A stretch of 32,000 nucleotides of DNA from Candidatus Harpocratesius repetitus (GCA_021498095.1 JAIZWK010000001.1:1230001-1262000), one strand, 5' to 3'; positions 14 through 19,713 are shown, numbered from the stretch's first letter. Notes: generated from the letters alone by a model not told the origin. Numbers and translations are program-made.

Positions 14-3000
14 ATGTTTGGTCTATCTCTTCTATTTATCTGCAATTTGATTTTAGAGGTTATTCAACCTGGAGAATATATTGGAATTGCAGGTTATATC
101 CTTACTACTATGTTAATTATATTGGTTATATATCCTCTTTGGGAAGCTTTCTTTTTAGGAAGACCTACGAGTGATTCTGTTCATGATTTTCATAAATTTC
201 TTGAATCAAAGATTTTAGATCGCTTTCAAGGAACTATGGCGTATGTAGTTTCATTTATAATTTTCATTGTCATCTATATCGTTCCTATTATCTTAATTTG
301 GTATTTTTCTTCTATTTCGATTGCTCAAGTTGCATTTATGTGGTTTTTAATCTTTCCTCTGTTTTTCCTTAATTATTTTGCTTCTCAAGGCCAAGTTAGT
401 GGTATAATTCAAGCTACATATAGGAAAAATATTCCAAAAGAAATTATATCTAGTTCTCATTTAGGTCAAAGCACCATGAAACGAGTTTTAAATATATTTT
501 TTATTATAATTGCATGGACTCCATTTGTTTTATCCTTTTATAATTTCTTTAATCCAATCTTGAAGGCAATTAATGGTTACACATTTACAGAGAAAGATAA
601 AATGATGGGTTATCTGTCAATCTTAACTACTGTTCCATTTGGAATTAAAGGATTTTTCCAAAAATTCTGGAATAAAAAAGCGAAGACAAAAATCATTGAT
701 TATATTTTCGGAGGTTATATTTTTATCTCTCTGGCTGTTAATATGCTATTAAATTTTGTTCAAATAGAAAAAGCAGTTGTTACTAGTATATTTCAAACTA
801 ATCTTCTTCTTGCACCAATTCAACCAATTTTTGAAAATTATAGTATTCTAGTCCCACTAATTGTAGTTCAATCTTTTATCACCATTGTTTTTGGAACTTA
901 TACTTTATTGCAAAGAAATTCTGATTTTCACTCCGACATTCGATTGCAAGCTACATCTTTAGCTTATGGTGATTTTGAAATTGCAGAGATTATAAAAGCA
1001 ACTAAATCACGAAAATCTATAAAAAGTAAGAGCGAAAAAGCAATAGAAAAAGAATTGGAAGATCAGAAAAAGAATAGAAAAGGTAAAAAACAGACAAAAA
1101 CTAAAGATAAAAAATCGAAAATCAAGCATGATATTCTCACATTATATAAATCAATTCTACTTCCATCAGTTTATAGTGAACATGGTGTGGATCTTAATGA
1201 ACAGATCCGCTTGAAGGCTGAACAGTATCTTTACTTAATAGCAATTGAGAATCAAGAAGAAGCAGAAAAAATTGTATCATTTTTATTTAAAATGTCACTG
1301 AATTCAGAACAATATCAGAATAACTTAATGAATAGAAATAAGTTTAATAATCGTGAAGCTATAGGACTTCTAGGAGAAATTGGTGCAGAATATCCCAATA
1401 TTGTCTTAGAACGATTAATTAAGGCTCTTTCATATAATGATATTCGAACACAAAGACATATTTTGGATGCTTTAGGTGATATAGGGGAAACAAAGGAGAA
1501 TTTACTCTTGATTCTTGGAAAAATAAGACCACTTCTCGTTGATAAACGCACTGAGGTAAGAACAGCCGCGTTTCAAGCTATTACTGAAATGGTTCTTGAA
1601 GGTCAAAATCAAGATAAAGAATTTGTGGGAGAAATTCTTAGAGTTGTATATGGTATTTTGAATGATGAATTTAGTAATTCAGAAGCCATCGATTCTGCTT
1701 TCGAAGCTCTAGTTCAAATGAGCGCAAAAATTGCAGATGACTTATCTATTGAAAAAATAGTTCCATTTTTAGAATATAATGAAGGAAATGACAAAGATAC
1801 GATAGAATATATAATTCAAAATGCTTTAGTTGTGCTTTCATACATGGTATACTACAATATAGATACATTTCCACTTGAAAAAGTTCGCTCATTTTTGAAA
1901 GATGAACGCTCATTTTTACGATATGTAGCTGCTGATGCTGTGGGAAACTACATTTTAAAAGGACCAGAAGAGGCAAAAGAAGAAATCTTAGTTGATCTAA
2001 TGATAATGGCTCTTCACGATCCAGATATTGATGTCGTTCAAATGTGTGCAGAAAGTATCGCGGAATTTCTTATTATGAATAAAAATTATGAACCCACTAT
2101 TGACGGAAATAAGATTTCAATTATTGATTACTTTACTCGAGCATTAACTTCATCTGAACCAAAGGTAGCAGAAAATGCTTCAGAAGCTCTTAAAATGATT
2201 TCTCCAATGTATGATGAAATTGATATTTATCCCAGACTTGAACCTCATCTAAATGGAGACAACCTGGAATTAATCAGAGATTGTCTGCATGTGATTGCAC
2301 TTTCAGATAGTGAAGAGCATTTAAGCGCAAATCTGGAAATCATCTATAAATTAACCCGTCATCATGATGCCAGCGTTCGAGATAAAGCTGTTTATACTCT
2401 TGGAATGATTTCAAAAAATAGACCTGATATAGATGAAAAAATTGTTTTTGAACGACTTGATGATGAAGACCCTCAAGTTCGTCAAGAAGCTATTTTTGCT
2501 TTAGGGAAAATTGGGATTAAAAAACCGTTAGAAGTTACTCCAGAACTCATTCAACGTTTTTTCCAACTTGATAAAGAATCGGAGCAGTTCATAAGTGAGA
2601 TTGAACTCTATGCGGAATCCTTAGGTGTTATTGGTTCGCATCATCCATCAAATGAAATTATCATTTCTTTACAAGCTACTTTAATGGGTGATACAAATGT
2701 ATTTGCTAAAGATGTTATTGCTCGTGCTTTAGGGGCAATTGGTCATGGAATGATAAAATCAGGAGTTGCAATTAGACGAATTGAAGATGAAGCATTTTTA
2801 AATCGGATTTCTTGGTTAAAGATAGTAAGGAAGAAAGAATATACTATTGGTAATCTCATTATCTTTTTAATTGAAGCGCTTCAATTGAAAGGAATCCCAA
2901 ACAGCGTGATGAATGAAATTAGCGATGCAATTCAAGATTTACTTCCTGTCTTTTTATTTGCAAAGTATGAAGATGAAGATCCAACCAGTAATAAAACTCT

Positions 3001-3478
3001 TGAGATTATTAAAAAATTGTTAGCCCAAGCTTACTACGCAAATTATAATAACGAGATTTTGGAAACAATTGATCGTATCGATTCGATGATTAGTTTTAAG
3101 AAATATTTTGAAGAAAAGGATCCAAGAATTAAGGATCAATTTCTCTTTTATGCAAAACAATATACTCCAGATGGTAAACAATTTTTCGATCAAGGTAATC
3201 TCTTTTCAATATTAGCAGAAGATGATCCGACTTATTTAGCATATGCATTGAAATCATATGAGATTGCTGTCGATCTTTCACCATATGAATATTACACTCC
3301 AAGTTGTTTATTAAAGATGGGTGAGATTTATCGAAATACTGAGGAATATAAGGCTGCTGAGAAAATGTTTGCAGAAGCTTTAGAATTATTCTCTTCGATG
3401 GATGAAGTAGATCAGATGAAATACGTGGAAGATGCTTTATCTTCTGTTCGAAAGAATCTTTCAAACACAGCAAAGTAA
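14..3478 (+). CDS. Multi-pass membrane protein with HEAT-repeat solenoid and C-terminal TPR-like helices (probably 5'-truncated by the window)
   Basis: The frame is open back to position 2. About 8 hydrophobic segments lie in the first 300 aa, then a Lys-rich linker, then repeated HEAT-like units (e.g. 'DKRTEVRTAAFQAI', 'DASVRDKAVYTLG', 'DPQVRQEAIFALG') and a TPR-like end ('CLLKMGEIYRNTEEYKAAEKMFAEALELF'). Confidence 0.8.
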   Translation: MFGLSLLFICNLILEVIQPGEYIGIAGYILTTMLIILVIYPLWEAFFLGRPTSDSVHDFHKFLESKILDRFQGTMAYVVSFIIFIVIYIVPIILIWYFSSISIAQVAFMWFLIFPLFFLNYFASQGQVSGIIQATYRKNIPKEIISSSHLGQSTMKRVLNIFFIIIAWTPFVLSFYNFFNPILKAINGYTFTEKDKMMGYLSILTTVPFGIKGFFQKFWNKKAKTKIIDYIFGGYIFISLAVNMLLNFVQIEKAVVTSIFQTNLLLAPIQPIFENYSILVPLIVVQSFITIVFGTYTLLQRNSDFHSDIRLQATSLAYGDFEIAEIIKATKSRKSIKSKSEKAIEKELEDQKKNRKGKKQTKTKDKKSKIKHDILTLYKSILLPSVYSEHGVDLNEQIRLKAEQYLYLIAIENQEEAEKIVSFLFKMSLNSEQYQNNLMNRNKFNNREAIGLLGEIGAEYPNIVLERLIKALSYNDIRTQRHILDALGDIGETKENLLLILGKIRPLLVDKRTEVRTAAFQAITEMVLEGQNQDKEFVGEILRVVYGILNDEFSNSEAIDSAFEALVQMSAKIADDLSIEKIVPFLEYNEGNDKDTIEYIIQNALVVLSYMVYYNIDTFPLEKVRSFLKDERSFLRYVAADAVGNYILKGPEEAKEEILVDLMIMALHDPDIDVVQMCAESIAEFLIMNKNYEPTIDGNKISIIDYFTRALTSSEPKVAENASEALKMISPMYDEIDIYPRLEPHLNGDNLELIRDCLHVIALSDSEEHLSANLEIIYKLTRHHDASVRDKAVYTLGMISKNRPDIDEKIVFERLDDEDPQVRQEAIFALGKIGIKKPLEVTPELIQRFFQLDKESEQFISEIELYAESLGVIGSHHPSNEIIISLQATLMGDTNVFAKDVIARALGAIGHGMIKSGVAIRRIEDEAFLNRISWLKIVRKKEYTIGNLIIFLIEALQLKGIPNSVMNEISDAIQDLLPVFLFAKYEDEDPTSNKTLEIIKKLLAQAYYANYNNEILETIDRIDSMISFKKYFEEKDPRIKDQFLFYAKQYTPDGKQFFDQGNLFSILAEDDPTYLAYALKSYEIAVDLSPYEYYTPSCLLKMGEIYRNTEEYKAAEKMFAEALELFSSMDEVDQMKYVEDALSSVRKNLSNTAK

Positions 3479-3583: not shown

Positions 3584-4644
3584 ATGGGAAAACCCCTTTT
3601 TATAATAAAACATATTCCTTTTCATGAATTAGAGCAATATTATAAGCAAGAAAAGAATGCTCGAGTAAAAACAAAAATACTTGCAGTCATACAACTATAC
3701 TTTGGGAAATCTACACTCGAAACAGCCTTCCATGTTCATTCCTCCCCTCAATCAGTAAGGAAATGGATTCATCAATGGAATAAAGATAGGATGAAAGGTT
3801 TACAACCCATAAAACGTGCAAAAGTTTATTCTTTATTATCGGAAGAACAAGAAAAACAAATTAAGAAAGATATTAAACAATCTCCCCGAAAACAAGGATA
3901 TTCCTTTAGTAATTGGCATTTAAAAGACATAAAAGGACATATAAAAAAAAAATATGACATTGATATGTCAATTTCAGGGGTTTGGCGAATGATGAAACGA
4001 TGGGATTACACATTGTTAGTACCAAGACCAATGCCTGCAAAAGCAGACGAAAAAAAAAAGATCAATTTCGACACGAAATGAAAGAGCTTGTAAATAACTT
4101 AAATGAAAACGAATCGATTTTATTCCAAGACGAAAGTTCCTTCTATTTTTCCCCCGAACCACGTCGTATATGGGCACCAAAGGGATCAAAACCAATTCTC
4201 CGAATACACAGCGGAAAAAAACGGTTAAATGTAATCGGTGCAATTGATCCTATCCAAAGGCGCGGATATTTTCAATATATTAAAAATTTAGACGTAGTTA
4301 ATTTTGGGCAATTTCTTCGTGGAATTCTTGCACAATATCCTGAAAATCATAAAATTTATATGATTTTAGATAATGCACGATCGCATCATGCAAAAATGCT
4401 TCAAAAATGGTTACAAATAAACAATTATCGTCTAAAATTAAAGTTTTTACCGCCCTATTCTCCTGATCTGAATCCGATCGAAGGTATTTGGAAAGATGCA
4501 AAGAGTAAAGCAACATACAACGAATTTTATGAAAAATTTGAAGAATTTCAATCTTCTTTATCCAAAACTTTGCACGAATTGAGTTCAGATGATGAAAAAC
4601 TAGCATTACGATGTAATTTGGAAAAATATAGAATTAATTCATAA
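3584..4644 (+). mobile_element. IS630-family insertion sequence; transposase split into orfA (3584-4081, HTH/winged HTH) and orfB (3982-4644, DDE). Element ends not identified.
   Basis: orfA has two HTH-like blocks ('TAFHVHSSPQSVRKWIHQW', 'WHLKDIKGHIKKKYDIDMSISGVWRMMKRWDY'). orfB has the IS630 DDE motifs FQDES, ILDNARSH and YSPDLNPIEGIW. Confidence 0.92.
4054..4060 (+). promoter_or_regulatory. -1 frameshift/slippage site A_AAA_AAG joining IS630 orfA and orfB
   Basis: A10G run at 4050-4060. In the orfA frame the codons are AAA (4055) and AAG (4058); a -1 shift continues into orfB 'KDQFRHEMKEL', giving a transposase of roughly 350 aa. Confidence 0.8.
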
Positions 4645-7556: not shown

Positions 7557-8984
7557 TTGAATGAACAATCACCAAACATTTCGACAAAATCTCACAATTC
7601 AAGTGATATTTCCGAAAATAAAGATCATGATAAAGAATCTTCATTTGATAAAATATTTTCATCAAAAGATACTTTGAATTCCCAATTTAAGATTTCTTCT
7701 AATTCACTTTCAAATTTTCCTAATTTATTCTTTTATTTTGCAGAAAACATTTATTGTAATCTTTATGTTTATCAAAATTCATTTACTGAAAAAATTCTTT
7801 CGATTAATCAATATTTTCCTGAATATGAAGCTCTTTTTAAATATCTTAATTATTGCTTGCTAATGAATGAAAAACAATTAAATATATCATTTCAAAATCA
7901 AAACGCTTCACCAACAGATTCCACATTGAATCAAAGCAATAATTCTTCAATGTACATGAATCTTAAGTCAAATCTCTTTCCAATTTTCCAAAGATCAATT
8001 GTTTTTGTTCCAAATGGTCATGGACTACAAGATTTTTTTGCAATCTTTAGCAAGCTTTATAATTATTTCGTTATTTACCTTGATCTATTTATTCCTAATG
8101 ATTCCAATATTTCTAAATTAAAACAACCGCTTTCAGGGCTTATTTCATCATATTTACAAGATTTAGAATCTGGTAAAACAATCTTTTCAATTTTTATTCA
8201 TACTTCTTCAGAATTCTCGCTTCATTCTACTCTTCAAACGGAAGTTAATTTAGTTCTTTACAATATTCTCACAGATTTGGGTGCGTCTTCTAAGTTACTT
8301 CCTTTTCCTCTTATAATTATTTTAAATGAAGGTATAGATCAACAATTACCTAACCAATACTTCGACTTTATTTTTCATTTTAATTCCCCCTCTTTTAAAA
8401 CACGTATTCAATTTTTAAAAGCTCTGCCTTCATTAATTCCTAAGAATTCTATTAATTTAGAACACCTTGCTCATCAAATGAATAAATGGAACTTTGCTCA
8501 TATTCAAGAATTTTACATATTATGTCAAAAGTATTTTATTATCGAAAATTCATTTTCAAAGAAAAAATGGGAATCTGCAGAGATCACTACAGAATATGTT
8601 TTAAATCTCATGGATCGTCGAATTTTTCAACCAAGTCTTATTAAAAATGAGAAGTTTTCAAACGAAAGTTTTAATAAAAGACAAAGTTCGAATTTTAAAG
8701 AAAATCTGGATAATGTTGAAGTATTAAAAAATAGAAAATTAGGAAACTATAATCGTGATTTTATCTTTCAATTATATCAAGAAGTTGCCAGCTCTTGTTA
8801 TGATGAGATGATATTGATTCTTGATAAACTACAAAAAGGAATAATTCTTCAAAAGTCTGAGTTATCTTTGCTAGCAGATTATTCTTTTTTAATGAAAGAA
8901 TCACCTAAAGAAGCAATTACTCAATTACATAAAGCCAAACAGCGTCTTTCACAAATCGATCTTTTTTCTCAAAAAAACAAATGA
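7557..8984 (+). CDS. Degenerate (probably inactive) classical AAA+ domain protein with low-complexity N-terminus
   Basis: 'LIIILNEGIDQQLPNQYFDFIFHFNSPSFKTRIQFL...INLEHLAHQMNKWNFAHI' follows the sensor-1/SRH/lid pattern of Cdc48/Vps4/FtsH-type AAA domains. The Walker A position reads IVFVPNGHGLQ (no GKT) and the Walker B position reads SIFIHTS (no DE). Confidence 0.6.
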   Translation: MNEQSPNISTKSHNSSDISENKDHDKESSFDKIFSSKDTLNSQFKISSNSLSNFPNLFFYFAENIYCNLYVYQNSFTEKILSINQYFPEYEALFKYLNYCLLMNEKQLNISFQNQNASPTDSTLNQSNNSSMYMNLKSNLFPIFQRSIVFVPNGHGLQDFFAIFSKLYNYFVIYLDLFIPNDSNISKLKQPLSGLISSYLQDLESGKTIFSIFIHTSSEFSLHSTLQTEVNLVLYNILTDLGASSKLLPFPLIIILNEGIDQQLPNQYFDFIFHFNSPSFKTRIQFLKALPSLIPKNSINLEHLAHQMNKWNFAHIQEFYILCQKYFIIENSFSKKKWESAEITTEYVLNLMDRRIFQPSLIKNEKFSNESFNKRQSSNFKENLDNVEVLKNRKLGNYNRDFIFQLYQEVASSCYDEMILILDKLQKGIILQKSELSLLADYSFLMKESPKEAITQLHKAKQRLSQIDLFSQKNK

Positions 8985-9031
8985 ATTAATCATTCTAAAT
9001 GATAATAAATTATATTTATTCTCTGATAAAA

Positions 9032-12000
9032 ATGTCAAAGTCCGATGAAATTTCAGAATCAATTTCCCATATTTCTACAATTTCTAATGTAGATAAGGAA
9101 AAAAAAGTTTCAATATCAGAGAAAAGTCTCTCTTCATCACCAATTATATTTGTTGAAAAAATAGTGTTACAAAACTTTCTTTCTTTTGAATATGATGAAG
9201 TGCTATTTGATCCTCAATTTTCAATTATTATTGGACCAAATGGAGCGGGAAAAAGTTCTATTTATCAAGCATTAAAATTTGTATTAGGTTCTAACGATTA
9301 CGACGGTAGATATTCTAAATGGTCTGATTTTATTAGAACAGGTGCTAAAAAAGCTGTTGTTCAAATTCATATATTTATCGATAAAGAGGAATATATATTA
9401 CAGCGCATCGTTTCTATGAATGAAACACCTAAATTTTTATTTAAATCACCAAAAGATAAAAAATTGAGAACTATATCTGTTAAAAAAGTTAAAGATTTTA
9501 CAAAACAAATTCAAATTGATCCTAATAATATTTTTGCATTTATGTCTCAAGGAAATATTGATACAATTAAAGATTTCAAAGAAGAAACCCTCTGTTCGTT
9601 TATCGAAAATGGATTGGGATTAAATTTGACTCGAGAACAAATACTTGAAGTAAAATCTGAGATATTTCGATTGAAACAAGAAGAAAATTCATTATTAACT
9701 GAGCGAGAAAACATTCTTAATCAACTAACAGAATTAGAACCTTTAATTGAACAGCTGAAAAAGAAAGATGAACTCAAATCTCATTTAGATAAGTTACAAT
9801 TAGAATTAATAATTGCTCAAAAATCACAAATTGAAGAAGAAATCGAGAGATTGCAAAACAAAATTTTAATTATTTCTAAAGAAATTCAATCTTTTAACAA
9901 ACAAATTAATGGATTTAGTGAAGATATTTCTAATTATGAAAATGAAAAAGAAAAAGAAACAAAGTTCTATAATGAATTGATTGAACAACGAACTAAACTT
10001 CAAATGAAAAACGAGCATATTAAACAGCAAATAGAAGATTGGACAGATGAAAAAAATAATATTGCTACTCAAATTCAAAGTTTGGAACATGAAATTGAGA
10101 CACAAATTAAACAAAAAAAGCAAATTTCTTCCGAAATGGTTCTTAGTGAGTCAAAAATTAAATCAACTGAAATTCAACTCAGTAAACATCAAAAACAGAT
10201 CCAAAATTTACAAACTATACAGACACAATTACAAAATCAAATGCAACAATATAAATATACAATTAATCAATTAGATGCTGAAGAACAAGTTTTAAATATT
10301 TTAACTGCAAGTATGGATGAGTATCAAGCTGATTATGACAATTTCACAAAAGAAATTGATCAAAGATTAAGAGAAATCAATAAGATTAAAAATGAATTTC
10401 GAAAATATCAATGGTTTTTAAAGAATCCTACTGATAATTTACCCGATTTAATGCGACAAGAAGAACATAATGTTTTACAGAGAATCTCTGTTTTAACGAA
10501 AAATTTAAGTGACTTACAAGAAATTTATAATGAAAATATTAAATCAATAGAAAAAATAAATAATTCCATTATTGATCGAAATTTTCCGAAACCGCGGCAA
10601 ATTCAAGCTTTACTAGATGAATTGAAAGAACGAAATCTTAATTTTATTGGCCCATTAATCGATTACATAACCTATGATGAATTATACAGATCAGCAGTAG
10701 AATCTATATTTGGTTTTTCTGTACTTTTCAGTTTTATTGCTAAAGATAGCGAAACATTCCATCTCCTAACAACTTTAGCTAAAAAACATGGTGCTAAATG
10801 CAAAATTTATAAAGAACGGACAAATCAAATTAGACCTCTTCCTAATCTTAAACCTGATCCAACATCAGGAATTTTTGGGTATTTAGCGGAAAAAATTAAA
10901 CCAATTTCGGAAGATCCTGCAATTTTGAAAGTAATTTACTCAGTAGCCAATAAAACTTTAGTAGTTAAAGATCATATTATCGGAGAACAATATATTGAAC
11001 GATATAATTGGTCCTCATGGGTAGTTACTTTAGCAGGTGATCAAATTCGCCCTAAAAGACTTGTTTTAGAAGCTCTACCACGTATTTCTTCTTCTCAAAG
11101 AGCAAAATTTCAAAATGTAGCTCAAGCAAAGAAAAAAATTGCAGAATTATCGAATCAAATGAAACATAATAGAGAATTATATTTGGAAAGAGAACAACGA
11201 TTAGAAGAAGAAAAACACAAACTCTCAATTCTAAAAACCAGATTACAGGATGTTGATCGATTATATTCAAATTATAAACTTTTAGAAATAAAAACGACAT
11301 CAAAAAATAATCTTGTATCAAAAAAGAAAGAATTATTCAAAAAAATCCAAGAAAAAATCCAAGATATTCAAGAAAAAGAAAAGAAGATTAACAGCTTAAG
11401 ACAATCTTTACCTGATTCATTCGTTGAACAAAAACAGCAACTCGATGAAATTCCTCTAAAAATTGCAGAATTAAATGAAATTTTAATAGAATTAAATGAT
11501 ATGTACGGAAATCTTCAAAAAAATAGAGAAAACTTGAAAGAAAATGAGATAAAAATTAAAATTCATCTTGAAGATTTAGAAAAGCAGAAATCTAAATTAA
11601 ACTTTGAGTTGAAATCTAAAGATGATAAATTTTATAGTTTATTTCAAGAAACAATAAAATTAGAAAAAGAAATTCATCAATATCAACAGAAAGAAAAAGA
11701 GAAAGGCGAGAAATTGAAAGATTTAGAAGAGAAAATCTCCAATATTCTAGAAAAGAAGCATGAAATTTCTCTAAAAATCAACACACTTCAATTTAAGCAG
11801 TCTCAACTTTCACAATCTTTGGAAGATAATACCGTTAAACTTCAAACCATAGAAAATCTTCTCAAAGGAAGCATTTCTTTGAATTCTAAAAGAACGATTG
11901 ATGAAATTGAAGCAGATATCCAGTTTATTCAACATGAAATCGATAAAATTCAAGTCGATGATGGAATTTTATTAGAAAAGGAAAAATTGGAGAATATTAT

Positions 12001-12565
12001 CGATCGCATTGGTGAAAAACGACAATCTTTACAAAATGAAATTTCTGCTGCTGAAACGTCCCAAAAGCGATTAGAAACAACTTTTTTTAAGAATTTTCAG
12101 GAAAAAATTAATTTTCTACAAGATTCCACAAATTCTAAACTTCAATTTTCAGGTCAGAATTTTACAATTCAAATGAATCTTAAAGGTGAAATTGAATCTC
12201 TAAAGTTATCAGTAATAACAACAACTAGTATTAACAATTGTAATGTTCAATACCCCTTGCAAGCTGTCAGTGGTGGCCAACGATCGATGGTTGGAATTTG
12301 TCTGATGTTATCACTCACCCATCTAAATCCATCTCCTTTGAATATTTATGATGAATGTGATATGTTTTTAGACGAACTTAACGCTGAAACTATTGCTAAA
12401 CTAATTCATCAACTTGCAAGAAATGGTATTCAATTTATTTTATTAATGCCAAGTAAAAATATCCCTCTGCTAAAAAACGCAAATAAAGTTATTGGAGTTA
12501 GTCGTAACGGGAAATTTGGGCCTTCATTTGTTCATTATTCTCGCGCATTTGCTCATGAATCTTAG
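9032..12565 (+). CDS. smc: SMC ATPase, SMC5/6-like (ORF from 8999; ATG at 9032 preferred)
   Basis: Walker A GPNGAGKS (~9233), 'IDPNNIFAFMSQG' Q-loop, long coiled coils, hinge 'IGPLIDYI...YRSAVESIFG', signature VSGGQRS (~12266) and Walker B/D-loop 'PSPLNIYDECDMFLD'. Confidence 0.92.
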   Translation: MSKSDEISESISHISTISNVDKEKKVSISEKSLSSSPIIFVEKIVLQNFLSFEYDEVLFDPQFSIIIGPNGAGKSSIYQALKFVLGSNDYDGRYSKWSDFIRTGAKKAVVQIHIFIDKEEYILQRIVSMNETPKFLFKSPKDKKLRTISVKKVKDFTKQIQIDPNNIFAFMSQGNIDTIKDFKEETLCSFIENGLGLNLTREQILEVKSEIFRLKQEENSLLTERENILNQLTELEPLIEQLKKKDELKSHLDKLQLELIIAQKSQIEEEIERLQNKILIISKEIQSFNKQINGFSEDISNYENEKEKETKFYNELIEQRTKLQMKNEHIKQQIEDWTDEKNNIATQIQSLEHEIETQIKQKKQISSEMVLSESKIKSTEIQLSKHQKQIQNLQTIQTQLQNQMQQYKYTINQLDAEEQVLNILTASMDEYQADYDNFTKEIDQRLREINKIKNEFRKYQWFLKNPTDNLPDLMRQEEHNVLQRISVLTKNLSDLQEIYNENIKSIEKINNSIIDRNFPKPRQIQALLDELKERNLNFIGPLIDYITYDELYRSAVESIFGFSVLFSFIAKDSETFHLLTTLAKKHGAKCKIYKERTNQIRPLPNLKPDPTSGIFGYLAEKIKPISEDPAILKVIYSVANKTLVVKDHIIGEQYIERYNWSSWVVTLAGDQIRPKRLVLEALPRISSSQRAKFQNVAQAKKKIAELSNQMKHNRELYLEREQRLEEEKHKLSILKTRLQDVDRLYSNYKLLEIKTTSKNNLVSKKKELFKKIQEKIQDIQEKEKKINSLRQSLPDSFVEQKQQLDEIPLKIAELNEILIELNDMYGNLQKNRENLKENEIKIKIHLEDLEKQKSKLNFELKSKDDKFYSLFQETIKLEKEIHQYQQKEKEKGEKLKDLEEKISNILEKKHEISLKINTLQFKQSQLSQSLEDNTVKLQTIENLLKGSISLNSKRTIDEIEADIQFIQHEIDKIQVDDGILLEKEKLENIIDRIGEKRQSLQNEISAAETSQKRLETTFFKNFQEKINFLQDSTNSKLQFSGQNFTIQMNLKGEIESLKLSVITTTSINNCNVQYPLQAVSGGQRSMVGICLMLSLTHLNPSPLNIYDECDMFLDELNAETIAKLIHQLARNGIQFILLMPSKNIPLLKNANKVIGVSRNGKFGPSFVHYSRAFAHES

Positions 12566-12585
12566 GCAAGAATCGGAGTGAAAAA

Positions 12586-13392
12586 ATGGTAAATCGCAGC
12601 GAATTACAAGATTTGATGAAAGAAATTGAGGAATTGGAAAAGCAAGCTAATTCTGATACAGATCAATTAATAGATAAAGATCTTATTCCTATTTTTCATA
12701 AGCTTTCTTCATTATTAAATCCTAAAGATATTGATCTTGCACTTTCTATCTTACAAGGCGGAACGGACATTTTAAGGCTGAAAATTGAAGCAATAAAACA
12801 ATATATCTTATTATTATCTCAAAGGGAACTTATTGATGCATTTTTGGAGAATAATTCTGATGATATTTTATTAAACTCTCTTTTAAAACGATTTTGGATA
12901 TCCCCTTTTCAAATTTCTTCCATTTCTTCAAAATATTTGATTAAAAGTTATCAAAATCTAGTATTGGAAAAAAAATCCAGAAGTGCTTATTCTCCACCAT
13001 CAGAATTAGTGTCAAATTCAGAAAAATCTGTTGAAATGTTCTCACTTGATTCTAAAGAGATACAAGAAGAAATTCACTCCTTTTATCAAAATATTTTAAA
13101 CGTACTTCCTTGCGAATTGTCTGTTATTTTGCATAATTATCAAAATCCCAGTCAATATTTTCGCCATTTTTCATACATTTTGCATTTAACACAAGAAGGA
13201 TTTTTAAAATACGATCAGCAAACAAAATTCTTTTCCATTGCAGCAGATAAGGAAGAAAGAGTGGAAAAATATGAAAGAAAAAGGGAAAAGAAAGAAATGG
13301 ATGAAAGCAATGAGAAAAAGAAAGGAAATTTAAACAAAATAGTAAATCAAGACGAAAATCCAAATGAAAGAAAAGGAAGTGAAGAAATATGA
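12586..13392 (+). CDS. Kleisin-like subunit (ScpA/Nse4-like)
   Basis: Lies 20 bp after smc with an SD-like GGAGTGA. The helical N-domain ('LALSILQGGTDILRLKIEAI') and C-terminal winged-helix pattern ('YFRHFSYILHLTQEGFLKYDQ') resemble the kleisin termini. Charged low-complexity tail. Confidence 0.65.
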   Translation: MVNRSELQDLMKEIEELEKQANSDTDQLIDKDLIPIFHKLSSLLNPKDIDLALSILQGGTDILRLKIEAIKQYILLLSQRELIDAFLENNSDDILLNSLLKRFWISPFQISSISSKYLIKSYQNLVLEKKSRSAYSPPSELVSNSEKSVEMFSLDSKEIQEEIHSFYQNILNVLPCELSVILHNYQNPSQYFRHFSYILHLTQEGFLKYDQQTKFFSIAADKEERVEKYERKREKKEMDESNEKKKGNLNKIVNQDENPNERKGSEEI

Positions 13393-13949
13393 ATGAATTT
13401 TGCCTTCTTACGCATTTACTCAGCGATACTCAAATAATAAATTCGGATATATCAGATAATATTATTTCAATTGGTTGCACTGAAGATCAACTAATTAAAT
13501 CTTTAGGATTGAGTGGAAAATATGCAAAAATTCAATTAATACAATTACTTAATTCGTATGCTCAAGCAATTCGTGTATTTGGTTTGAGAGTTCAGAAAAA
13601 CCAACTTAATCAAAGATGGTTTTTAGCTAAATCACCTGAAATTCTCGAGTCAATAGGTAGTAATCCATTTCAAAATAAGCCTCGATTAGGGGCTACGCTA
13701 ATGGTTATAATTACATCTATTATGATTTCAAAAAGTCCCGTTGATAAAGCGAGAATCTTAGAAATACGCAAAAAACAATCAATTGAAGAAGATCTTAAAG
13801 CACTAGCTAAAATGAATTTTATTATAATTTCTAAATCAAAAATATCATTACATCCCAATTTAGGTTATTATCTTGATTTTTCAAATTTTTTCTCAGCTGT
13901 GGAGCACTTATCCTTAAAATCTGATAATCAAAAATCTTCATCTTCTTAA
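13389..13949 (+). CDS. KITE-like tandem winged-helix subunit (ScpB/Nse1/Nse3-like)
   Basis: ATGA overlap with the kleisin stop. About 186 aa with two WH-like halves ('LLNSYAQAIRVFGLRVQKN...WFLA'; 'LMVIITSIMI...IEEDLKALAKMNFI...ISLHP'). Confidence 0.6.
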   Translation: MNEFCLLTHLLSDTQIINSDISDNIISIGCTEDQLIKSLGLSGKYAKIQLIQLLNSYAQAIRVFGLRVQKNQLNQRWFLAKSPEILESIGSNPFQNKPRLGATLMVIITSIMISKSPVDKARILEIRKKQSIEEDLKALAKMNFIIISKSKISLHPNLGYYLDFSNFFSAVEHLSLKSDNQKSSSS

Positions 13950-14060
13950 TAGTTGAATGAGTTGTGTTAAGAATGAATTGGTAATTATCTAGATGATATT
14001 CAAATGTTATTTATATGATTGAGAGATTTATTTCAAATTTTGGTTTGAAATCTATTGAAG

Positions 14061-14381
14061 ATGGGTCTTTTTACACACAAAACCAAAGGAAATATTGAAA
14101 ATAAATTTCCTTCTGAAAATTTATTCATAAAACAAATTACATTAAACGGATCGCGTGATTTTGCTTTGCTTCAGCACAATCTTTTAGATGGGAATTTAAT
14201 GATTGTAAATCTAAAACCTCTACTTCGAATTGCTAAGGGACAAAAATCAGAATCATCAGTACTTCAAGATCAACTTCAAAAAATTAAAAAATACTGCTTA
14301 CGTACGGGTGGAAATGTAATAAAATTGAAGGAATGTACACTTTTGATAACACCTAATCATTTATTCAAAATTGAACGCTAA
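14061..14381 (+). CDS. sepF: Archaeal-type SepF-family protein (ORF from TTG 14055; ATG at 14061 preferred)
   Basis: MGLF start, 'LLDGNLMIVNLKPL', 'LQKIKKYCLRTGGNV' and 'LLITPNHLFKIER' match the SepF core pattern. Confidence 0.8.
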   Translation: MGLFTHKTKGNIENKFPSENLFIKQITLNGSRDFALLQHNLLDGNLMIVNLKPLLRIAKGQKSESSVLQDQLQKIKKYCLRTGGNVIKLKECTLLITPNHLFKIER

Positions 14382-15322: not shown

Positions 15323-16492
15323 TTAAGAATGTAAAAACCAAATGATTTGGGATAATAAAATTGGTTCATATCTAAGAAAATTATGACCTCCTCTTTGAGT
15401 TATAAGCCAATTTGATGAATCTAAGTTCAATTCATCTAAATTATCCCAAAAATGCTCAACTGGAATTACTAAATCATTTTTAGCATGGATTAGATAGAAT
15501 TTTTTGTTATTGTAGTTTTTCCAAAAGACTTGGTTTTTCATTTCTTGCTTTTTTCGTTCAATTTGTAAAAGTGGAGATAATTCAAAATTTTTTTTATAAA
15601 TTGGATTTATTGGGACTCCAAAAAATGTATATCTTAACCAAAACCACCAATTTTTCAGAAATGGAACAGGTGAAAAGGGAATTGATTCACGATAATTTCC
15701 CATTGCTGCTACGGCAATAATTTTTGAAATGTCATTATTAATATAATAGTGATTTTCAATCTGATTTTCTTTTTTGACTTCCTTATCTATATTTTTGGAA
15801 TCATTTTGATTTTTGATATTATCTTGACTTTCTGGGATAAGGTTTAGGTTCCTCAGACCCTGCTTTATAACAGCGATAGCACCTAATGATAAACCGATAA
15901 GATTTATTGTCAAATCACAAAAGCGTGGATCTTTTTTCAGAAATTTGATAACATACTCTAAATCGTTTGTTATTTCTACGAACTGAGATTTTGCACCTGC
16001 TTTACGGGATTTTTTTGTTCCGCGATTATCATATGCGATTACATTAAATCCAGCATGAGCAAGAGGAATTGTATAATGCCGGATGTAGAGAGAATCATCT
16101 GAAAATCCGTGAACGAAAATGATTATTGGTGATTTATTGCTATTAAATTGGCTATGAATCCATTCTCCATGTAAAAATTTGATTTTCTTTTTTTTGTCTT
16201 TATTGTTTTTTTGACTTTCATTACCTTCAAATGAGGTAAGTGGAATTGAAATTGGTGTAATTTCGACTCGATTTCTTTCTACATCCGCTCCAAACCAACG
16301 AAATTGCCAGAAATCACGAATTTCAAAATACAATGACCAGCAAAGCCACCAAAATAAGAAAGTAAAAACAGAAAGATATAGAGAATTTCCCAAAGAATTT
16401 CCATAAAAAATAAAATAATTTACATAAAAAATTCCAGATGCAAGAATAATGCCTAAAAATAGTAAGAGATAATGTTTCGGCCGAATAATCAT
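15323..16492 (-). CDS. Membrane-anchored alpha/beta hydrolase
   Basis: Two N-terminal TM segments, 'FVHGF' oxyanion motif, GLSLG nucleophile elbow, 'HAKND' acid and 'GGHN' histidine. Confidence 0.88.
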   Translation of the reverse strand: MIIRPKHYLLLFLGIILASGIFYVNYFIFYGNSLGNSLYLSVFTFLFWWLCWSLYFEIRDFWQFRWFGADVERNRVEITPISIPLTSFEGNESQKNNKDKKKKIKFLHGEWIHSQFNSNKSPIIIFVHGFSDDSLYIRHYTIPLAHAGFNVIAYDNRGTKKSRKAGAKSQFVEITNDLEYVIKFLKKDPRFCDLTINLIGLSLGAIAVIKQGLRNLNLIPESQDNIKNQNDSKNIDKEVKKENQIENHYYINNDISKIIAVAAMGNYRESIPFSPVPFLKNWWFWLRYTFFGVPINPIYKKNFELSPLLQIERKKQEMKNQVFWKNYNNKKFYLIHAKNDLVIPVEHFWDNLDELNLDSSNWLITQRGGHNFLRYEPILLSQIIWFLHS

Positions 16493-16551: not shown

Positions 16552-19500
16552 TTATTTATTATATTTACTAAATAATACTTCAAACTGCTGAATTACTTTG
16601 TTTTCTATGTCTTCATGCATTAACTGGTCTGAAATACATTCTAACTCTGAAAAAAGAAGAGATAATTGCTCTTTGTTGTGCTTAATTTGATTTCCACCTC
16701 TAATTGAGGATTCGAAATTTATTACATAAAATACTAATGATTTGGGTATTTCTAGTAGAATTCCAAGAATCAGATCTACTATATTTAGTGTATCTTTTAT
16801 TTGTGAAGAGTTAAATCTTCGATGTTCTGAATCATAGTGTTGGAATAATTTATCCATTAAGTATTCAGCACATTTTTTCAGCAAATGGGTAAATCGAATA
16901 AGCCTTTCTGGAAAATTTACAGGTAATGGAAAAGCTGCAAGAATATCTTTATTCATATGTCGTCCATCGCTAAAGATCCGAAACCATGTGTAAAACAAGG
17001 AAGAATTAATCAAACACAATAGAAATGCTTGAAAAGAAGAAGAAGGTGATTTTAAAGGGAGAAATGCGATTTGAGTCCCGCAATATGGTGGTTTATGCCA
17101 AGAATTGTACCAATAATTTCCTGAAATTCGGATCCAAACCCCATCTGAGGATCTTTCAGGGTATTGCTTTAGTATATAGTGCTTGGTCTCTTCATCCTTG
17201 CAAATGATTGCTGTCTTTATCCAATCTCCCAATCTCCTTTTTAGTTTTGTTTTTCTTATTATTTTTATTTTTTCATTTTTGTGTTGAGAATGATAATTTT
17301 TTGGTATAACTTCTGTCCATGATTTAAAAAGTGTTAAAAGTTCTAAAATAGGAGAGGTTCCAATTTTCGGAACTCGATGTGGCTCATTAAAGCTCACTCC
17401 GATATAATCTCCTAATAAAAATGAATTAGCCGGCTGATATTCGAATTCCATTAAAGAAGGAAGTTTGCGGAACATTTGAGTAGTATATAATTTTCCTTCT
17501 TTTTTTGGATATATTGGATGATGACCAAATGCTAAAAGAATTGAAACAGATTGAGTCATTCCATCAAATAAACGACATTTATCCCGATCAAATGTAGCTA
17601 AGAATAGAAAATTAAATGAATTAATCAGATTTTTTCTTAAATTCGATAGTTTTTTGTTAAAACAAATTGTATACGATGTCAATAGTCCAAAAGAACCGTT
17701 TATTTTTAAGAGTCGATTTATTTTTGAAATAAAAAGGCTTGAAATTTCACTTTTTAAGCCATCATAGTTTGGAAGTAGTTTTTTTTCTTGAGATGTTAGT
17801 AGATTTCCATAAGGAGGATTTCCCAGAATTAAATTAAATCCCGAGTTGAAGCATGAAGTCGGTTCAGGATGGTAAAATGGAGATGGACAGGGAAATTGCT
17901 CCGGAAATTCAAGGATCCAGTGAAAAATCTTAAGTGTGTTGTTATTTGTATTGCTTTTAGATTTGTACAGTTCAAAGTATAATTTATCCAGGATTTTTTG
18001 CAAATGATATTTGATATTCGTAATTAATTGTTGTGTCTCCTTTTTAAGATATTGTTCAAAAAAGAATACTCTATTTTTTCGGAATTCTGCAATAAGTTTG
18101 AAATATGGAACAATATAATTAAGAAGTCGGGAAGAATCTTGAAGAGAAATATGATTTATTTCAATCAAAGCAGAAATACCTTGAGGTAACTGATTAATCT
18201 CTGTTTTTTCTAAAAATTGCTGTAAATAGGTGTGAACACTTAATAAGTTCTTCACAATTTCATTTTTTATTTTAATGTTAATTTTGTGCAGGTTATTTCC
18301 ATTTAAGAAACGATCTAAATCATACCAAGAGTCCCAACCAATTAAACTGTTACCTGAATGAATATTCATTGGAATTAAGTGTATTTTCTGATTTTTTATC
18401 ATTTGTTCAGGAATTTGAGAGACTACCTTTAAATATAACCTCCATTTTGTTATTCTGCATGATCTGGGGTTAATATCCACTCCGTATAGCATTTTTGGAA
18501 AAATTTCATATTTACGAAAGAAGTAGATAGCTTCAGAAAAGGATTTTAGTGAAATTAAATCAAATTTTCGTTGTTTTTCGAGATAAATGGAGAGAATATC
18601 AATATACTGCCGATTTTTACATATATCCCAAATTTCTTTATAAAAACAAAATAATATATTATCCATAGCAATTAAGAAATCTCCAGTTCCCACTGCTGGA
18701 TCTAATATTCGGAGTTTTAGAATTTTCTGATGGATTTGTCTTATCAAAGTATATCCAGTTTCAATATCTAAACTCAGAATGAAATATTTCAGAGAAATTA
18801 AATCGAAAACTTCATTTTCAATGTTGAAATGTGCTATCTTTGAAGAAAAACTTGATTTTTTTGAATATTGATTAAAATTTGGCAAGTGTTTTATGATAGG
18901 GTGAATTACTGAACGTAAAAAAAGTTTCAAAGCAATATCTTCACAAATATATGCAGGAGTATAATATGCTCCTGTTTGTTGTTTCGTCTCATTTTGAAGA
19001 AACCTTTCAAATAAAAAACCCAGATCAGTTTGTGTTATATTACCCCACTTGAGTTCAAAGGTTTCACAAGCCGAGAAAATCGCAACGTGAAAAGAATTTT
19101 GTGAAAAAACTTCATTCTTGCTGCTTTTTTCATCTTTCTGCTCATTAACAAAAAAGATTGAGTCTTTTAAATTTTCAATTATTGAAAAAGGGATAATTTG
19201 ATTCTCGAAATTATCGAATAATGATGGATCTATTCTTACATAAATTGAATCAAATAAGTGGATTGGATTTCGTTTGTGTTTTTTACTTCTATTCCTATCT
19301 CCTTGTTCCTTTTTCTCTTTTTGATTATTTCCTTTATTGCATGGAAAAATAATAGTAGAAATAAGTTTTGATATAAATTTAGAAAAACCAGATGAATCAG
19401 ATAGACTACAAGGTTGATTATTTGTTAATTCTTCTTCATTTGAATAATTGTTTTGTGATTTTGAAATTTTTTGGAAAATGTCTTTGAAAATATTGGGATT

Positions 19501-19713
19501 TTCCGCAATTAAACTTCTTTTTTGAAGTATCCAAAGAAATATCATTAAAAATATGAAATTATCGACTTTTACAATAAGTGTTTCATAAGAACTTCTCAAG
19601 TTTTCTTCTATTTTAGATTCTTCTCTCGTAATTGATTGATTGAGAATTTCATTCAAAAGATTCTGTTTCACTTTAGAAAAAAGTCGGAAAAAAAAAAGAT
19701 GTCGGGGTTTCAT
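16552..19713 (-). CDS. Large gamma-class N6-adenine DNA methyltransferase (Eco57I/TaqI-like MTase plus target-recognition domain)
   Basis: TGAYYTP, ILDPAVGTGDFL (motif I), LYGVDIN, GNSL, FNLILGNPPY (motif IV), and C-terminal 'LINSSLFYTW...FPLP' typical of this class. Confidence 0.9.
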   Translation of the reverse strand: MKPRHLFFFRLFSKVKQNLLNEILNQSITREESKIEENLRSSYETLIVKVDNFIFLMIFLWILQKRSLIAENPNIFKDIFQKISKSQNNYSNEEELTNNQPCSLSDSSGFSKFISKLISTIIFPCNKGNNQKEKKEQGDRNRSKKHKRNPIHLFDSIYVRIDPSLFDNFENQIIPFSIIENLKDSIFFVNEQKDEKSSKNEVFSQNSFHVAIFSACETFELKWGNITQTDLGFLFERFLQNETKQQTGAYYTPAYICEDIALKLFLRSVIHPIIKHLPNFNQYSKKSSFSSKIAHFNIENEVFDLISLKYFILSLDIETGYTLIRQIHQKILKLRILDPAVGTGDFLIAMDNILFCFYKEIWDICKNRQYIDILSIYLEKQRKFDLISLKSFSEAIYFFRKYEIFPKMLYGVDINPRSCRITKWRLYLKVVSQIPEQMIKNQKIHLIPMNIHSGNSLIGWDSWYDLDRFLNGNNLHKINIKIKNEIVKNLLSVHTYLQQFLEKTEINQLPQGISALIEINHISLQDSSRLLNYIVPYFKLIAEFRKNRVFFFEQYLKKETQQLITNIKYHLQKILDKLYFELYKSKSNTNNNTLKIFHWILEFPEQFPCPSPFYHPEPTSCFNSGFNLILGNPPYGNLLTSQEKKLLPNYDGLKSEISSLFISKINRLLKINGSFGLLTSYTICFNKKLSNLRKNLINSFNFLFLATFDRDKCRLFDGMTQSVSILLAFGHHPIYPKKEGKLYTTQMFRKLPSLMEFEYQPANSFLLGDYIGVSFNEPHRVPKIGTSPILELLTLFKSWTEVIPKNYHSQHKNEKIKIIRKTKLKRRLGDWIKTAIICKDEETKHYILKQYPERSSDGVWIRISGNYWYNSWHKPPYCGTQIAFLPLKSPSSSFQAFLLCLINSSLFYTWFRIFSDGRHMNKDILAAFPLPVNFPERLIRFTHLLKKCAEYLMDKLFQHYDSEHRRFNSSQIKDTLNIVDLILGILLEIPKSLVFYVINFESSIRGGNQIKHNKEQLSLLFSELECISDQLMHEDIENKVIQQFEVLFSKYNK

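Follow-up and report, generated by a model that had tools for sequence, protein, structure and literature searches.

The 32,000-nucleotide stretch of the Candidatus Harpocratesius repetitus genome analysed here (the window) contains an Smc5/6-related DNA-ring operon, composed of an SMC ATPase, a kleisin and a winged-helix KITE, whose reality in this Loki-type Asgard archaeon is confirmed. It is very likely that the genes at positions 9032-13949 code for the SMC, kleisin and KITE that form the core of an archaeal SMC5/6-related complex, with an AAA homologue immediately upstream as a probable partner. The case was built in silico: it covers the structure and conservation of the genes, the integrity of the motifs, the placement of the SMC in a clade and the folds predicted for the KITE and the kleisin. 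The features are as follows.

7557..8984, plus strand: degenerate classical-AAA homologue, 475 aa (synteny, family profile against the PDB, hhalign)
8999..12565, plus strand: SMC ATPase of the archaeal SMC5/6-related clade (family scans, PDB sequence search, alignments, head-domain tree, AU test)
9233..9256, plus strand: Walker A, GPNGAGKS, residues 79-86 (motif alignment)
9548..9550, plus strand: glutamine Q184 of the Q-loop, in FAFMSQGNID (family and motif alignments; invariant in the former)
10643..10975, plus strand: probable SMC hinge domain, residues 549-659 (PF06470 at 19.7 bits, under the 22.5 cut-off)
12269..12373, plus strand: SGGQRS signature, Walker B (IYDE, D1118/E1119) and D-loop DMFLD (family and motif alignments)
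12440..12457, plus strand: H-loop position, reading LLMPSK (family and motif alignments)
12586..13392, plus strand: kleisin gene, 268 aa (AF2 model, predicted complex, fold matches)
13389..13949, plus strand: KITE gene, 186 aa (AF2 model, Foldseek, VIA-align, PF04079, hhalign)

The initial annotation had described a hinged SMC followed by two tightly coupled genes in an Asgard-type genome, and the open reading frames and the sequence agree with it. The SMC counts 1188 aa from position 8999; from 9032, its likely start, it counts 1177 aa, which is also the length of its database copy P0008. Its stop codon (TAG, 12563-12565) is followed by 20 nt including GGAG and then by the kleisin ATG at 12586, and the kleisin and KITE genes share an ATGA overlap at 13389-13392. 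The nearest homologues carry the names Candidatus Harpocratesius sp. and Promethearchaeota. The idea of a minimal three-gene operon had to be abandoned, as a conserved degenerate AAA gene stands at the head of the operon.

The core SMC-kleisin-KITE set is almost certainly not new, the same operon having already been published for the close relative Prometheoarchaeum syntrophicum; the earlier suspicion that the family may be known was thus justified. SMC5/6-related archaeal SMCs were defined by Yoshinaga & Inagaki 2021 (PMC8665677), and SMC-kleisin-kite operons were described by van Hooff et al. 2024/25 (bioRxiv 10.1101/2024.01.07.573240), including P. syntrophicum NZ_CP042905.1_495/496/497 on the plus strand. 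The latter authors identified this set as an SMC5/6-related SMC with an Nse4-related kleisin, and placed the kite with Nse1-3 by their own profile and tree. In a closed genome of the same family (G142, presumably P. syntrophicum), the operon, on the plus strand, and a long condensin-like operon, on the minus strand, lie 314 kb apart, a spacing and orientation that match P. syntrophicum genes 497 and 808, which are 311 genes apart and lie on the corresponding strands. From spacing, strands and paralogue counts, the present operon is almost certainly the orthologue of P. syntrophicum genes 495-497. The published archaeal operons, of which P. syntrophicum belongs to the same taxonomic family, have the same gene order on one strand, an SMC that clusters with Smc5 and, as here, separate condensin-type operons in the same genome; the core described here does not differ from them in kind. 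The small subunits, first taken to be unannotated, are indeed named 'hypothetical protein' in the database, but the literature had already identified them in the relative. No experimental study of any member of an archaeal SMC5/6-related operon was found in the literature.

The SMC has the Walker A, Q-loop, signature, Walker B and D-loop that membership of the SMC ATPases asks for, divided between the N- and C-terminal halves of the head. In an alignment of 29 family members, S1091, G1092, G1093, D1118, E1119 and D1125 are invariant; the residues listed as invariant in it cover the Q-loop, signature, Walker B and D-loop, Walker A not being on that list. The protein matches SMC_N (PF02463) at 81.8 bits, the hinge model PF06470 is also recorded on several members of the family, and a coiled coil in the arms is implied by cross-matches to myosins (~80 bits, profile against the PDB). 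Two characters of the head bring it close to Smc5. The H-loop histidine is replaced by a proline, P1151, invariant in the family: in an alignment of 54 SMCs the position reads [TS]H in canonical SMCs, SMC1 and Rad50, TPK in Smc5, and MPSK or LPKS in the family studied here. The Q-loop segment is, in both this SMC and Smc5, one residue longer than in canonical SMCs. Smc6 probably shares the head-motif character of Smc5. The language-model lead for the protein is the SMC6 family. The Smc5/6-like head motifs initially pointed out are present, but 'DE.DMFLD' is not diagnostic alone, since it is also carried by some canonical archaeal-type SMCs (P0066, P0067).

The proposition that this SMC is not of the condensin type is substantiated by family scores and by phylogeny. 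It reaches 177.2 bits against TIGR02169, the condensin-type equivalog (cut-off 729.4), and 168.7 bits against the equivalog TIGR02168 (cut-off 567.35). A maximum-likelihood tree of head domains (52 rows, 373 columns) was computed under the site-heterogeneous model LG+C20+F+G4 PMSF. In this tree, whose sampling is thin (two eukaryotic Smc5, one SMC1 and no Smc6) and which contains long branches, the SMC family and its sister group f31 form a clade with support 100/99. Together they join eukaryotic Smc5 and the other Asgard Smc5-like SMCs in a second clade of 100/99, which leaves out the bacterial SMCs, the archaeal SMCs and the one eukaryotic SMC1. A clade uniting this SMC with the Asgard canonical, condensin-type SMCs is rejected by the AU test (p-AU 0.0003). 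The head-domain phylogeny called for at the outset thus places the protein with Smc5 and apart from canonical SMCs.

It is extremely unlikely, on this evidence, that we are dealing with a fast-evolving third paralogue of the condensin-type Smc-ScpAB complex, whose resemblance to Smc5 would be a long-branch artefact. Such a paralogue would account for ScpB being both the best fold match and the sole Pfam match of the KITE, for the D-loop DMFLD found in some canonical-type SMCs, and for the top profile scores against the PDB, in which Smc4, Smc2 and Smc3 rank over Smc6 and Smc5, although these scores are inflated by the coiled coil. It is contradicted, however, by the rejected canonical clade, by the 100/99 branch to Smc5 obtained under a site-heterogeneous model, by H-loop and Q-loop characters common to Smc5 and foreign to canonical SMC, and by two independent published phylogenies that recover an SMC5/6-related archaeal clade. 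We consider the condensin-type reading largely refuted.

The position inside the Smc5 clade is a more delicate matter. Smc5 joins the C-type and Heimdall-type sequences (C-type, f13, f18, f24 and f28; 98/90), not the Loki-type family. It is conceivable, and we retain it as a tentative possibility, that the operon represents a side lineage of the Loki order and f31, and that the direct counterpart of the Smc5/6 ancestor would be the other lineage, usual in Heimdall-type families and present in this genome as a sporadic 'C-type' locus (G000:C1:1133-1142 kb). In that case, 'pre-eukaryotic Smc5/6' would say too much of the operon at 9032-13949. This possibility is consistent with the best PDB matches of the C-type SMC P0168, which are Smc5 and Smc6, with a C-type kleisin that gives the only Nse4_C match of the genome (22.9 bits in one scan, 19.3 bits in another), with a faint MAGE match for the Heimdall-type KITE and with the almost complementary distribution of the two lineages across families. 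On the other hand, grouping Smc5 with the Loki-type lineage is not rejected by the AU test (p-AU 0.247), and Smc5, C-type and f24 all sit on long branches, which may have drawn them together. Van Hooff et al. class the inferred P. syntrophicum orthologue, with its Nse4-related kleisin, as SMC5/6-related (bioRxiv 10.1101/2024.01.07.573240). If the two lineages were orthologous replacements, both would equally be the archaeal counterpart.

The second gene had been called kleisin-like, and its in silico fold and predicted contacts with the SMC neck and cap point the same way. The AF2 model (pLDDT 84.4) displays an N-terminal helical domain, whose long helix spans residues 46-89, then a flexible central part and a C-terminal winged helix (~156-219) followed by a charged tail. 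Predicted together with the head and neck of the SMC, the kleisin obtained an ipSAE of 0.74, against 0.00 for the best of three controls; 58 of 80 solved complexes attain this mark, as do 2 of 110 mismatched pairs, but the prediction may echo a memory of solved SMC-kleisin structures and so speaks for likeness, not for binding. Contact agreement across the runs was at least 76%, with partner pLDDT of at least 65. The predicted neck interface involves kleisin residues 29-78 and SMC residues 211-239 and 1000-1035, and the predicted cap interface kleisin 178-219 and SMC 1152-1184. The C-terminal winged helix aligns with that of ScpA (4i99_C; Z 7.9, 61 aa, 2.1 Å) and of Scc1 (Z 7.3), and the best Foldseek row for the full-length protein is Nse4 (7qcd_F, E 0.046); these matches are middling, level with generic winged helices. 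The family comprises 60 cluster representatives. The Pfam scan of the kleisin (P0002) gave no match at all, none of 47 aligned family members matched PF02616, PF08743 or PF04824/5, a profile search of the PDB gave no kleisin-family sequence match, and hhalign found nothing between this kleisin and the Heimdall-type one. The language-model neighbours are Nse4_C clusters (archaeal and eukaryotic; 0.93 and 0.85) over ScpA (0.82), which is a lead only. Altogether, fold and complex predictions support the view that the 268-aa protein behaves as a kleisin.

The third gene was expected to encode a tandem winged-helix KITE, and by its predicted fold the 186-aa protein is one. Its AF2 model (pLDDT 86.2, pTM 0.76) contains two winged-helix domains in tandem, at residues ~1-89 and 98-160, and the structural matches, first to ScpB and then to Nse1, extend over both. 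The best six Foldseek rows are all ScpB (probability 1.00; E 1.4e-4 to 8.5e-4), with MAGE-G1/Nse1 at 3e-3 and JetB at 0.03; VIA-align gave Z 11.8 and 11.3 against ScpB (148-149 aa; 3.1 Å for the Z 11.8 match) and Z 9.9 and 9.4 against Nse1 (155 aa). At the sequence level, the protein passes the ScpB model PF04079 (28.7 bits, cut-off 27.4), as do 4 of the 32 family members in all, and hhalign relates it to the corresponding subunit of Heimdall-type operons (probability 78.5%, E 1.7e-5). An assignment to the Nse1/Nse3 (MAGE) type specifically was considered and set aside: PF01454 (MAGE) has no match in any of the 32 members, and 186 aa are too short for a RING domain. MAGE occurs among the language-model neighbours, again only as a lead. 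By these tests, the single KITE suggested to stand in place of Nse1/Nse3 resembles ScpB at least as much as Nse1/3.

The operon is headed by a gene that is absent from both prior papers, where 'AAA' does not occur in the main text; it constitutes, together with the three further SMC loci of the genome, our addition to the published operon. Between its end and the start of the SMC there are 14-47 bp, and in 7 of 7 genomes checked (families f1, f3, f4) the AAA homologue directly precedes the SMC in the same orientation, ~6-60 bp away. The Pfam scan of the single sequence gave no match. The family profile found the AAA domains of p97 D2 and Vps4/CdvC in the PDB (E 1e-6 to 5e-5), and hhalign relates the family to the AAA genes heading the sister-type and C-type SMC operons (98.9%, E 3.5e-17, 284 columns). 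As this homology is present and the catalytic Walker A GxxGxGK[ST] is absent, the protein is regarded as a degenerate AAA member: it reads VPNGHGLQ, devoid of the Walker A lysine, and the corresponding f3 sequence is NPGTDIL. A C-terminal helical extension is conserved. We propose that it probably serves the SMC complex as a fourth, catalytically inactive partner or regulator.

At the genomic level, the operon is the vertically inherited, order-wide version of the complex in Lokiarchaeia (Promethearchaeales). The KITE is present, as a single copy, in 139 of the 153 genomes of the order, and the order of SMC tail, kleisin and KITE is kept in all 29 related loci fetched, far beyond chance. The neighbourhood, with a GH77 gene upstream and hydrolase and restriction-modification genes downstream, is kept as far as a Prometheoarchaeum-like genome. 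Single copy, synteny and conserved surroundings are what a core gene set, and not a mobile island, would show, which argues against a system for defence or restriction of extrachromosomal DNA, like Wadjet/JetABCD, MksBEF or Lamassu, in place of chromosome maintenance. We hold such a role very unlikely, even though eukaryotic Smc5/6 restricts viral and episomal DNA according to PMC9458440, a type IIG restriction-modification gene is found 2.6 kb downstream of the operon, and PADLOC gives the SMC weak, generic matches to LmuB and mad3 (60-64 bits). The JetC match is at most 25 bits, no PADLOC model fits the two small subunits or the neighbouring genes, and the cluster contains no nuclease or JetD-like gene. 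Membership of Wadjet, Lamassu or Mks was rejected, as PADLOC identified no JetA, JetB, JetD or LmuA partner next to this SMC.

Stoichiometry, DNA transactions and cellular role we infer as follows. Two copies of the SMC most likely dimerise via their hinges. Ring closure by the kleisin would be asymmetric: its N-terminal helices would form a bundle with the coiled coil at the neck of one SMC, while the C-terminal winged helix would rest on the head 'cap' of the other. The middle of the kleisin would be bound by the single KITE as a dimer. Binding and hydrolysis of ATP at two composite sites would then power the clamping or entrapment of chromosomal DNA, or loop extrusion along it. As for the cellular role, we favour chromosome maintenance or repair over defence.

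With eukaryotic Smc5/6, the operon shares the head clade, the H-loop devoid of histidine, the longer Q-loop, predicted neck and cap contacts equivalent to those of Nse4, and the tandem winged-helix fold of Nse1/Nse3. It differs in having one SMC gene instead of the Smc5/Smc6 pair and one RING-less KITE instead of Nse1 and Nse3; genes for the SUMO ligase Nse2 and for Nse5/6 are not in the cluster, and Pfam yields no Nse4_C or MAGE match for its subunits. MukBEF, MksBEF and Wadjet JetABCD likewise combine an SMC-family ATPase with a kleisin and a KITE, and JetB is among the weaker fold matches of the KITE, but here the hinge is probably classical, JetD nuclease is lacking and conservation is vertical. 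Smc-ScpAB has the same architecture, an SMC (presumed homodimer) with a kleisin and a presumably dimeric KITE; the structure closest to the KITE is ScpB, and the C-terminal winged helix of the kleisin resembles ScpA-C on the Smc head. The operon is set apart from Smc-ScpAB by the equivalog scores, the rejected canonical clade and the PF02616 model, which the kleisin does not match. The genome moreover has its own canonical set elsewhere. Its four SMC-type loci, not reported in PMC8665677 or bioRxiv 10.1101/2024.01.07.573240, comprise the present operon and three others: the canonical SMC, which scores 828 bits against TIGR02169, a second, condensin-like SMC, and the sporadic Smc5-like C-type locus.

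Locus D, as the operon under study is termed here, consists of closely spaced SMC, kleisin and KITE genes preceded by an AAA-derived gene on the same strand. The host genome is a closed 4.36-Mb Asgard chromosome whose closest homologues bear the names Candidatus Harpocratesius sp. and Promethearchaeota. The genes are arranged as follows.

7557-8984, + strand: AAA-derived gene, 475 aa, with its stop 14-47 bp before the SMC gene
8999-12565, + strand: SMC gene, 1188 aa in the ORF table; read from the internal ATG at 9032 the product has 1177 aa, as does the database copy
12586-13392, + strand: kleisin gene, 268 aa in the ORF table
13389-13949, + strand: KITE gene, 186 aa in the ORF table

The SMC gene ends with TAG (12563-12565), 20 nt including a GGAG precede the ATG of the kleisin gene, and an ATGA overlap joins the kleisin and KITE genes. 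The layout described in the initial annotation, a hinged SMC followed by a 20-bp gap and an ATGA overlap, is borne out by the ORF table and the sequence, and its reading as an SMC5/6-like SMC with a kleisin and a KITE is supported by a head-domain tree, by models of the two small proteins and by a predicted complex. A scan for bacterial-type promoters and terminators, a type of scan ill-suited to an archaeon, gave counts equal to those of shuffled sequences.

The SMC carries a Pfam SMC_N domain, a hinge match at residues 549-659 that lies below threshold, and a Walker A motif; a 29-member alignment of its family shows no variation in the residues of the Q-loop, signature, Walker B and D-loop. 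It scores 177 bits against a condensin equivalog cut-off of 729 bits. All homologues at E < 1e-79 are Promethearchaeota, or metagenomic records labelled Hodarchaeota or unlabelled, and the next score is 78 bits. The ranking of PDB SMCs by full-length profile score (175 bits for Smc4, 119 for Smc6 and about 80 for myosin) is uninformative because the coiled coil dominates such scores, and the ranking from the single sequence is ambiguous. The placement of the protein is provided instead by an alignment of 54 SMCs, comprising the locus D family, its sister type from another Asgard family (f31), SMCs resembling that of another locus of this genome, locus C (C-type), Heimdall-type SMCs, the SMCs of two further loci (A and B) and the orthologues of these, bacterial-type SMCs, two eukaryotic Smc5, one SMC1 and the genome's own Rad50. 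After removal of two N-terminally truncated rows, a maximum-likelihood tree of the head domain (52 rows, 373 columns, LG+C20+F+G4 PMSF) united the locus D family with the f31 type (support 100/99). Smc5, C-type and Heimdall-type SMCs formed a second clade (98/90) that joins the first, and the union (100/99) leaves all canonical SMCs outside, in a tree that has long branches and whose few eukaryotic rows are Smc5 and SMC1 only. Branching with canonical SMC, the outcome that would speak against the initial annotation, was not seen, and a clade forcing the locus D family together with the Asgard canonical SMCs was rejected (p-AU 0.0003). The constraint placing Smc5 as the sister of the locus D family was not rejected (p-AU 0.247). 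The test grouping this family with all canonical SMCs against Smc5-like SMCs and Rad50 gave p 0.074, and is counted neither way because the constraint merely shifts the Rad50 root. A Rad50 identity was rejected: this genome has its Rad50 at a different site (4.09 Mb, 250 bits), and that protein roots outside in the tree.

Two characters in the 54-SMC alignment are shared by the locus D SMC with Smc5 and other Smc5-like archaeal SMCs, and are absent from canonical SMC, SMC1 and Rad50: the H-loop histidine is replaced (MPSK in locus D, TPK in Smc5), and the Q-loop segment is longer by one residue. The DE.DMFLD D-loop, part of the head motifs likened to Smc5/6 in the initial annotation, is not diagnostic, since two canonical-type SMCs carry it too. 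Within the locus D SMC family, a subgroup that includes P0027 and P0031 has the Walker A sequence GPNWSGK[ST], with Trp in place of the usual Gly and the lysine kept.

The 268-aa protein (P0002) gave no related match in Pfam, NCBIfam or PDB sequences, and none of the 47 members of its family matched Pfam. The family, for which an exhaustive search found 60 cluster representatives, had no match among PDB sequences by profile, and its alignment with the kleisins of Heimdall-type operons reached an hhalign probability of 0.07. In the AlphaFold model (pLDDT 84.4), the N-terminal part is helical, with one long helix spanning residues 46-89; a middle of low confidence leads to a winged helix at the C-terminus, at about residues 156-218, in the order helix-helix-helix-strand-strand. 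Among full-length Foldseek rows, Nse4 from the Smc5/6 holocomplex ranked first (E 0.046) and Brn1 chains came next. In the VIA comparison, the C-terminal winged helix matched ScpA-C on the Smc head (4i99_C; Z 7.9, 61 aa, 2.1 Å) and Scc1-C (Z 7.3), values level with those of generic winged helices. These fold comparisons lend modest support to a kleisin identity. A stronger test, the prediction of a complex of SMC residues 45-290 and 940-1188 with kleisin residues 1-230, scored 0.74, against 0.00 for the best of three controls, a level attained by 58 of 80 solved complexes and by 2 of 110 mismatched pairs. Between runs, 76% or more of the contacts agree, and the pLDDT of the partner is at least 65. 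In this prediction, kleisin residues 29-78 pack against the two strands of the SMC neck (211-239, 1000-1035), and residues 178-219 against the head's C-terminal cap (1152-1184). The predicted two-part interface of neck and cap is the defining geometry of a kleisin, and the model and its head and neck contacts agree with the kleisin call of the initial annotation. SMC-kleisin complexes have already been solved, so the high score may stem from resemblance to them, and the prediction is to be taken as evidence of likeness rather than of binding.

The 186-aa protein is a KITE, as its tandem winged-helix pattern had suggested: the model adopts that fold (pLDDT 86.2, pTM 0.76), and the best six Foldseek rows are all ScpB, followed by MAGE-G1/Nse1, Nse1-Nse3-Nse4 and JetB. 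Over both domains, ScpB reached Z 11.8 (148 aa, 3.1 Å) and Nse1 Z 9.9 (155 aa). The Pfam ScpB model matches 4 of 32 family members, this protein marginally above the cut-off, and none of the 32 matches MAGE; the KITE profile retrieved only chance-level rows from PDB sequences. Homology to the third gene of Heimdall-type operons was found by hhalign (78.5%, E 1.7e-5). The present data lean towards a subtype nearer ScpB; the kite of the P. syntrophicum set, the presumed orthologue, has been placed with Nse1-3 (van Hooff et al., bioRxiv 10.1101/2024.01.07.573240).

Four SMC-type loci are present in this genome, locus D and the following three.

Locus A (L012), G000:C1:566000-580000: 1487-aa condensin-like SMC, then a 366-aa gene and a 331-aa ScpB-domain protein
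Locus B: canonical SMC (828 bits by TIGR02169, above its cut-off) next to a ScpB
Locus C (L014), G000:C1:1133000-1145000, about 90 kb before the window: AAA ATPase, 1057-aa SMC, and proteins of 322, 313 and 176 aa

The locus A SMC has canonical LSGGEK and DEIDAALD motifs and no hinge by Pfam; the 366-aa product belongs to no family, and the 331-aa protein has its ScpB domain in the C-terminal half. Orthologues of this SMC, of about 1500 aa, occur in the same-family genomes G137 and G142. Locus C is a second SMC5/6-clade locus in this genome: the best PDB matches of its SMC are Smc5 and Smc6, and its 313-aa protein is a kleisin with the genome's only Nse4_C match. Its SMC signature is degenerate (SSGQK), and its AAA gene is of the active type. 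The two loci differ in their distribution. Among 153 other genomes of this order, 139 carry a single copy of the locus D KITE, with only weak matches in other Asgard families, and the succession of SMC tail, kleisin and KITE was kept in the same order and spacing in all 29 loci fetched. Locus C was found in 2 of the 153 genomes, and is absent from a same-genus genome and from G137 (6.04 Mb) and G142. Its relatives, at about 25% identity, are common in other families, namely f13 (25/31), f18 (10/12), f19 (18/19) and f24 (6/7), and most Heimdall-type families have them. It follows that the set passed down vertically in this order is locus D, and that locus C is the unusual extra. PADLOC found no defence-system match for the kleisin and KITE of locus D, and its cluster contains no nuclease gene.

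Of the eukaryotic SMC complexes, Smc5/6 is the least understood; its roots have been traced to Asgard and TACK archaea. Compared with the eight-subunit eukaryotic complex, locus D presumably encodes one SMC, one kleisin and one KITE, a simpler set for biochemistry, and it offers a clean, complete and order-wide example from a closed genome. Archaeal SMCs have been divided into canonical and 'SMC5/6-related', with separate homodimeric complexes proposed (Yoshinaga & Inagaki, PMC8665677). In P. syntrophicum, genes 495/496/497 (+) encode an SMC5/6-related SMC, an Nse4-related kleisin and an Nse1-3-related kite, and genes 810/809/808 (-) a condensin/cohesin-related set (van Hooff et al.). Locus D orthologues are also present in G137 and G142, presumably the genomes of two cultured organisms, Lokiarchaeum ossiferum and Prometheoarchaeum syntrophicum respectively. 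In G142 (closed, 4,324,194 bp), locus D occupies 4.2988-4.3035 Mb of the + strand and locus A 0.2934-0.2978 Mb of the - strand; across the origin, 314 kb separate the two, in keeping with the 311 genes that lie between 497 and 808. A verbatim copy of the G142 kleisin is present in a DDBJ run, with the neighbourhood of the window. From the agreement of strands, spacing, absence of locus C and this kleisin copy, we infer that the set 495-497 is the orthologue of the locus D operon. Locus D belongs to a kind described before and, the family and operon structure being in the literature, adds little in itself. Two points may carry weight. One is the conservation of an AAA-derived fourth gene; the other, the presence of two lineages of the SMC5/6 clade side by side in this genome, bears on the onset of the Smc5/Smc6 (and Nse1/Nse3) duplications.

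In each of the seven genomes checked, from three families, a homologue of the 475-aa AAA-derived gene directly precedes the SMC gene in the same orientation. The profile of the 475-aa family matches the p97 D2 AAA domain and Vps4/CdvC (E 1e-6 to 5e-5); a PDB search with the single sequence gave no match. Aligned by hhalign with the AAA genes heading f31-type and C-type SMC operons, it reached 98.9% (E 3.5e-17) over 284 columns, which take in the P-loop and a C-terminal helical extension common to both sides. By BLASTP, the resemblance to C-type AAA proteins is marginal (E 0.007 and 0.14), and profiles are needed for the link. The AAA genes of the f31-type and C-type operons pass Pfam AAA, the latter at about 100 bits; in the 475-aa family, which heads the operon in Loki-order genomes, the Walker A lysine is lost (VPNGHGLQ here, NPGTDIL in f3). 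Judged from sequence, the product of 7557-8984 is a degenerate classical-AAA homologue, p97 D2/Vps4-like, without the P-loop lysine. Heimdall-type operons have an unrelated CARDB-like gene at this position. We raise, as a rather doubtful possibility, that the operon forms a module of four genes (AAA, SMC, kleisin, KITE) rather than three, in which the AAA-derived protein would physically associate with the SMC5/6-related rings of these Asgard lineages and could load them, unload them or regulate their ATPase, a part comparable with that of Nse5/6. If so, it would represent an SMC accessory class unmentioned by Yoshinaga & Inagaki and van Hooff et al.; the main text of the latter makes no mention of an AAA gene.

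Further genes lie on either side of the operon. A HEAT-repeat protein of >1150 aa (14-3478, + strand, open 5' end), encoded 5.5 kb upstream of the SMC operon with an IS element (HTH_33 and DDE_3, 3584-4644) in between, matches Pfam Cnd1 (condensin non-SMC subunit 1) at 44.7 bits; no single stretch passes alone, and the match is probably generic HEAT similarity. Downstream, 105 bp past the KITE gene, a 108-aa gene (14055-14381, + strand) resembles SepF faintly (17.4 bits, under the cut-off), and is kept in position within the same family (45-68% identity) and not in the other families of the order. A gene for a 1053-aa Eco57I/MmeI-type restriction-modification enzyme (16552-19713, - strand) adjoins an alpha/beta hydrolase gene (15323-16492), and both also follow the orthologous operon in the Prometheoarchaeum-like genome G142.
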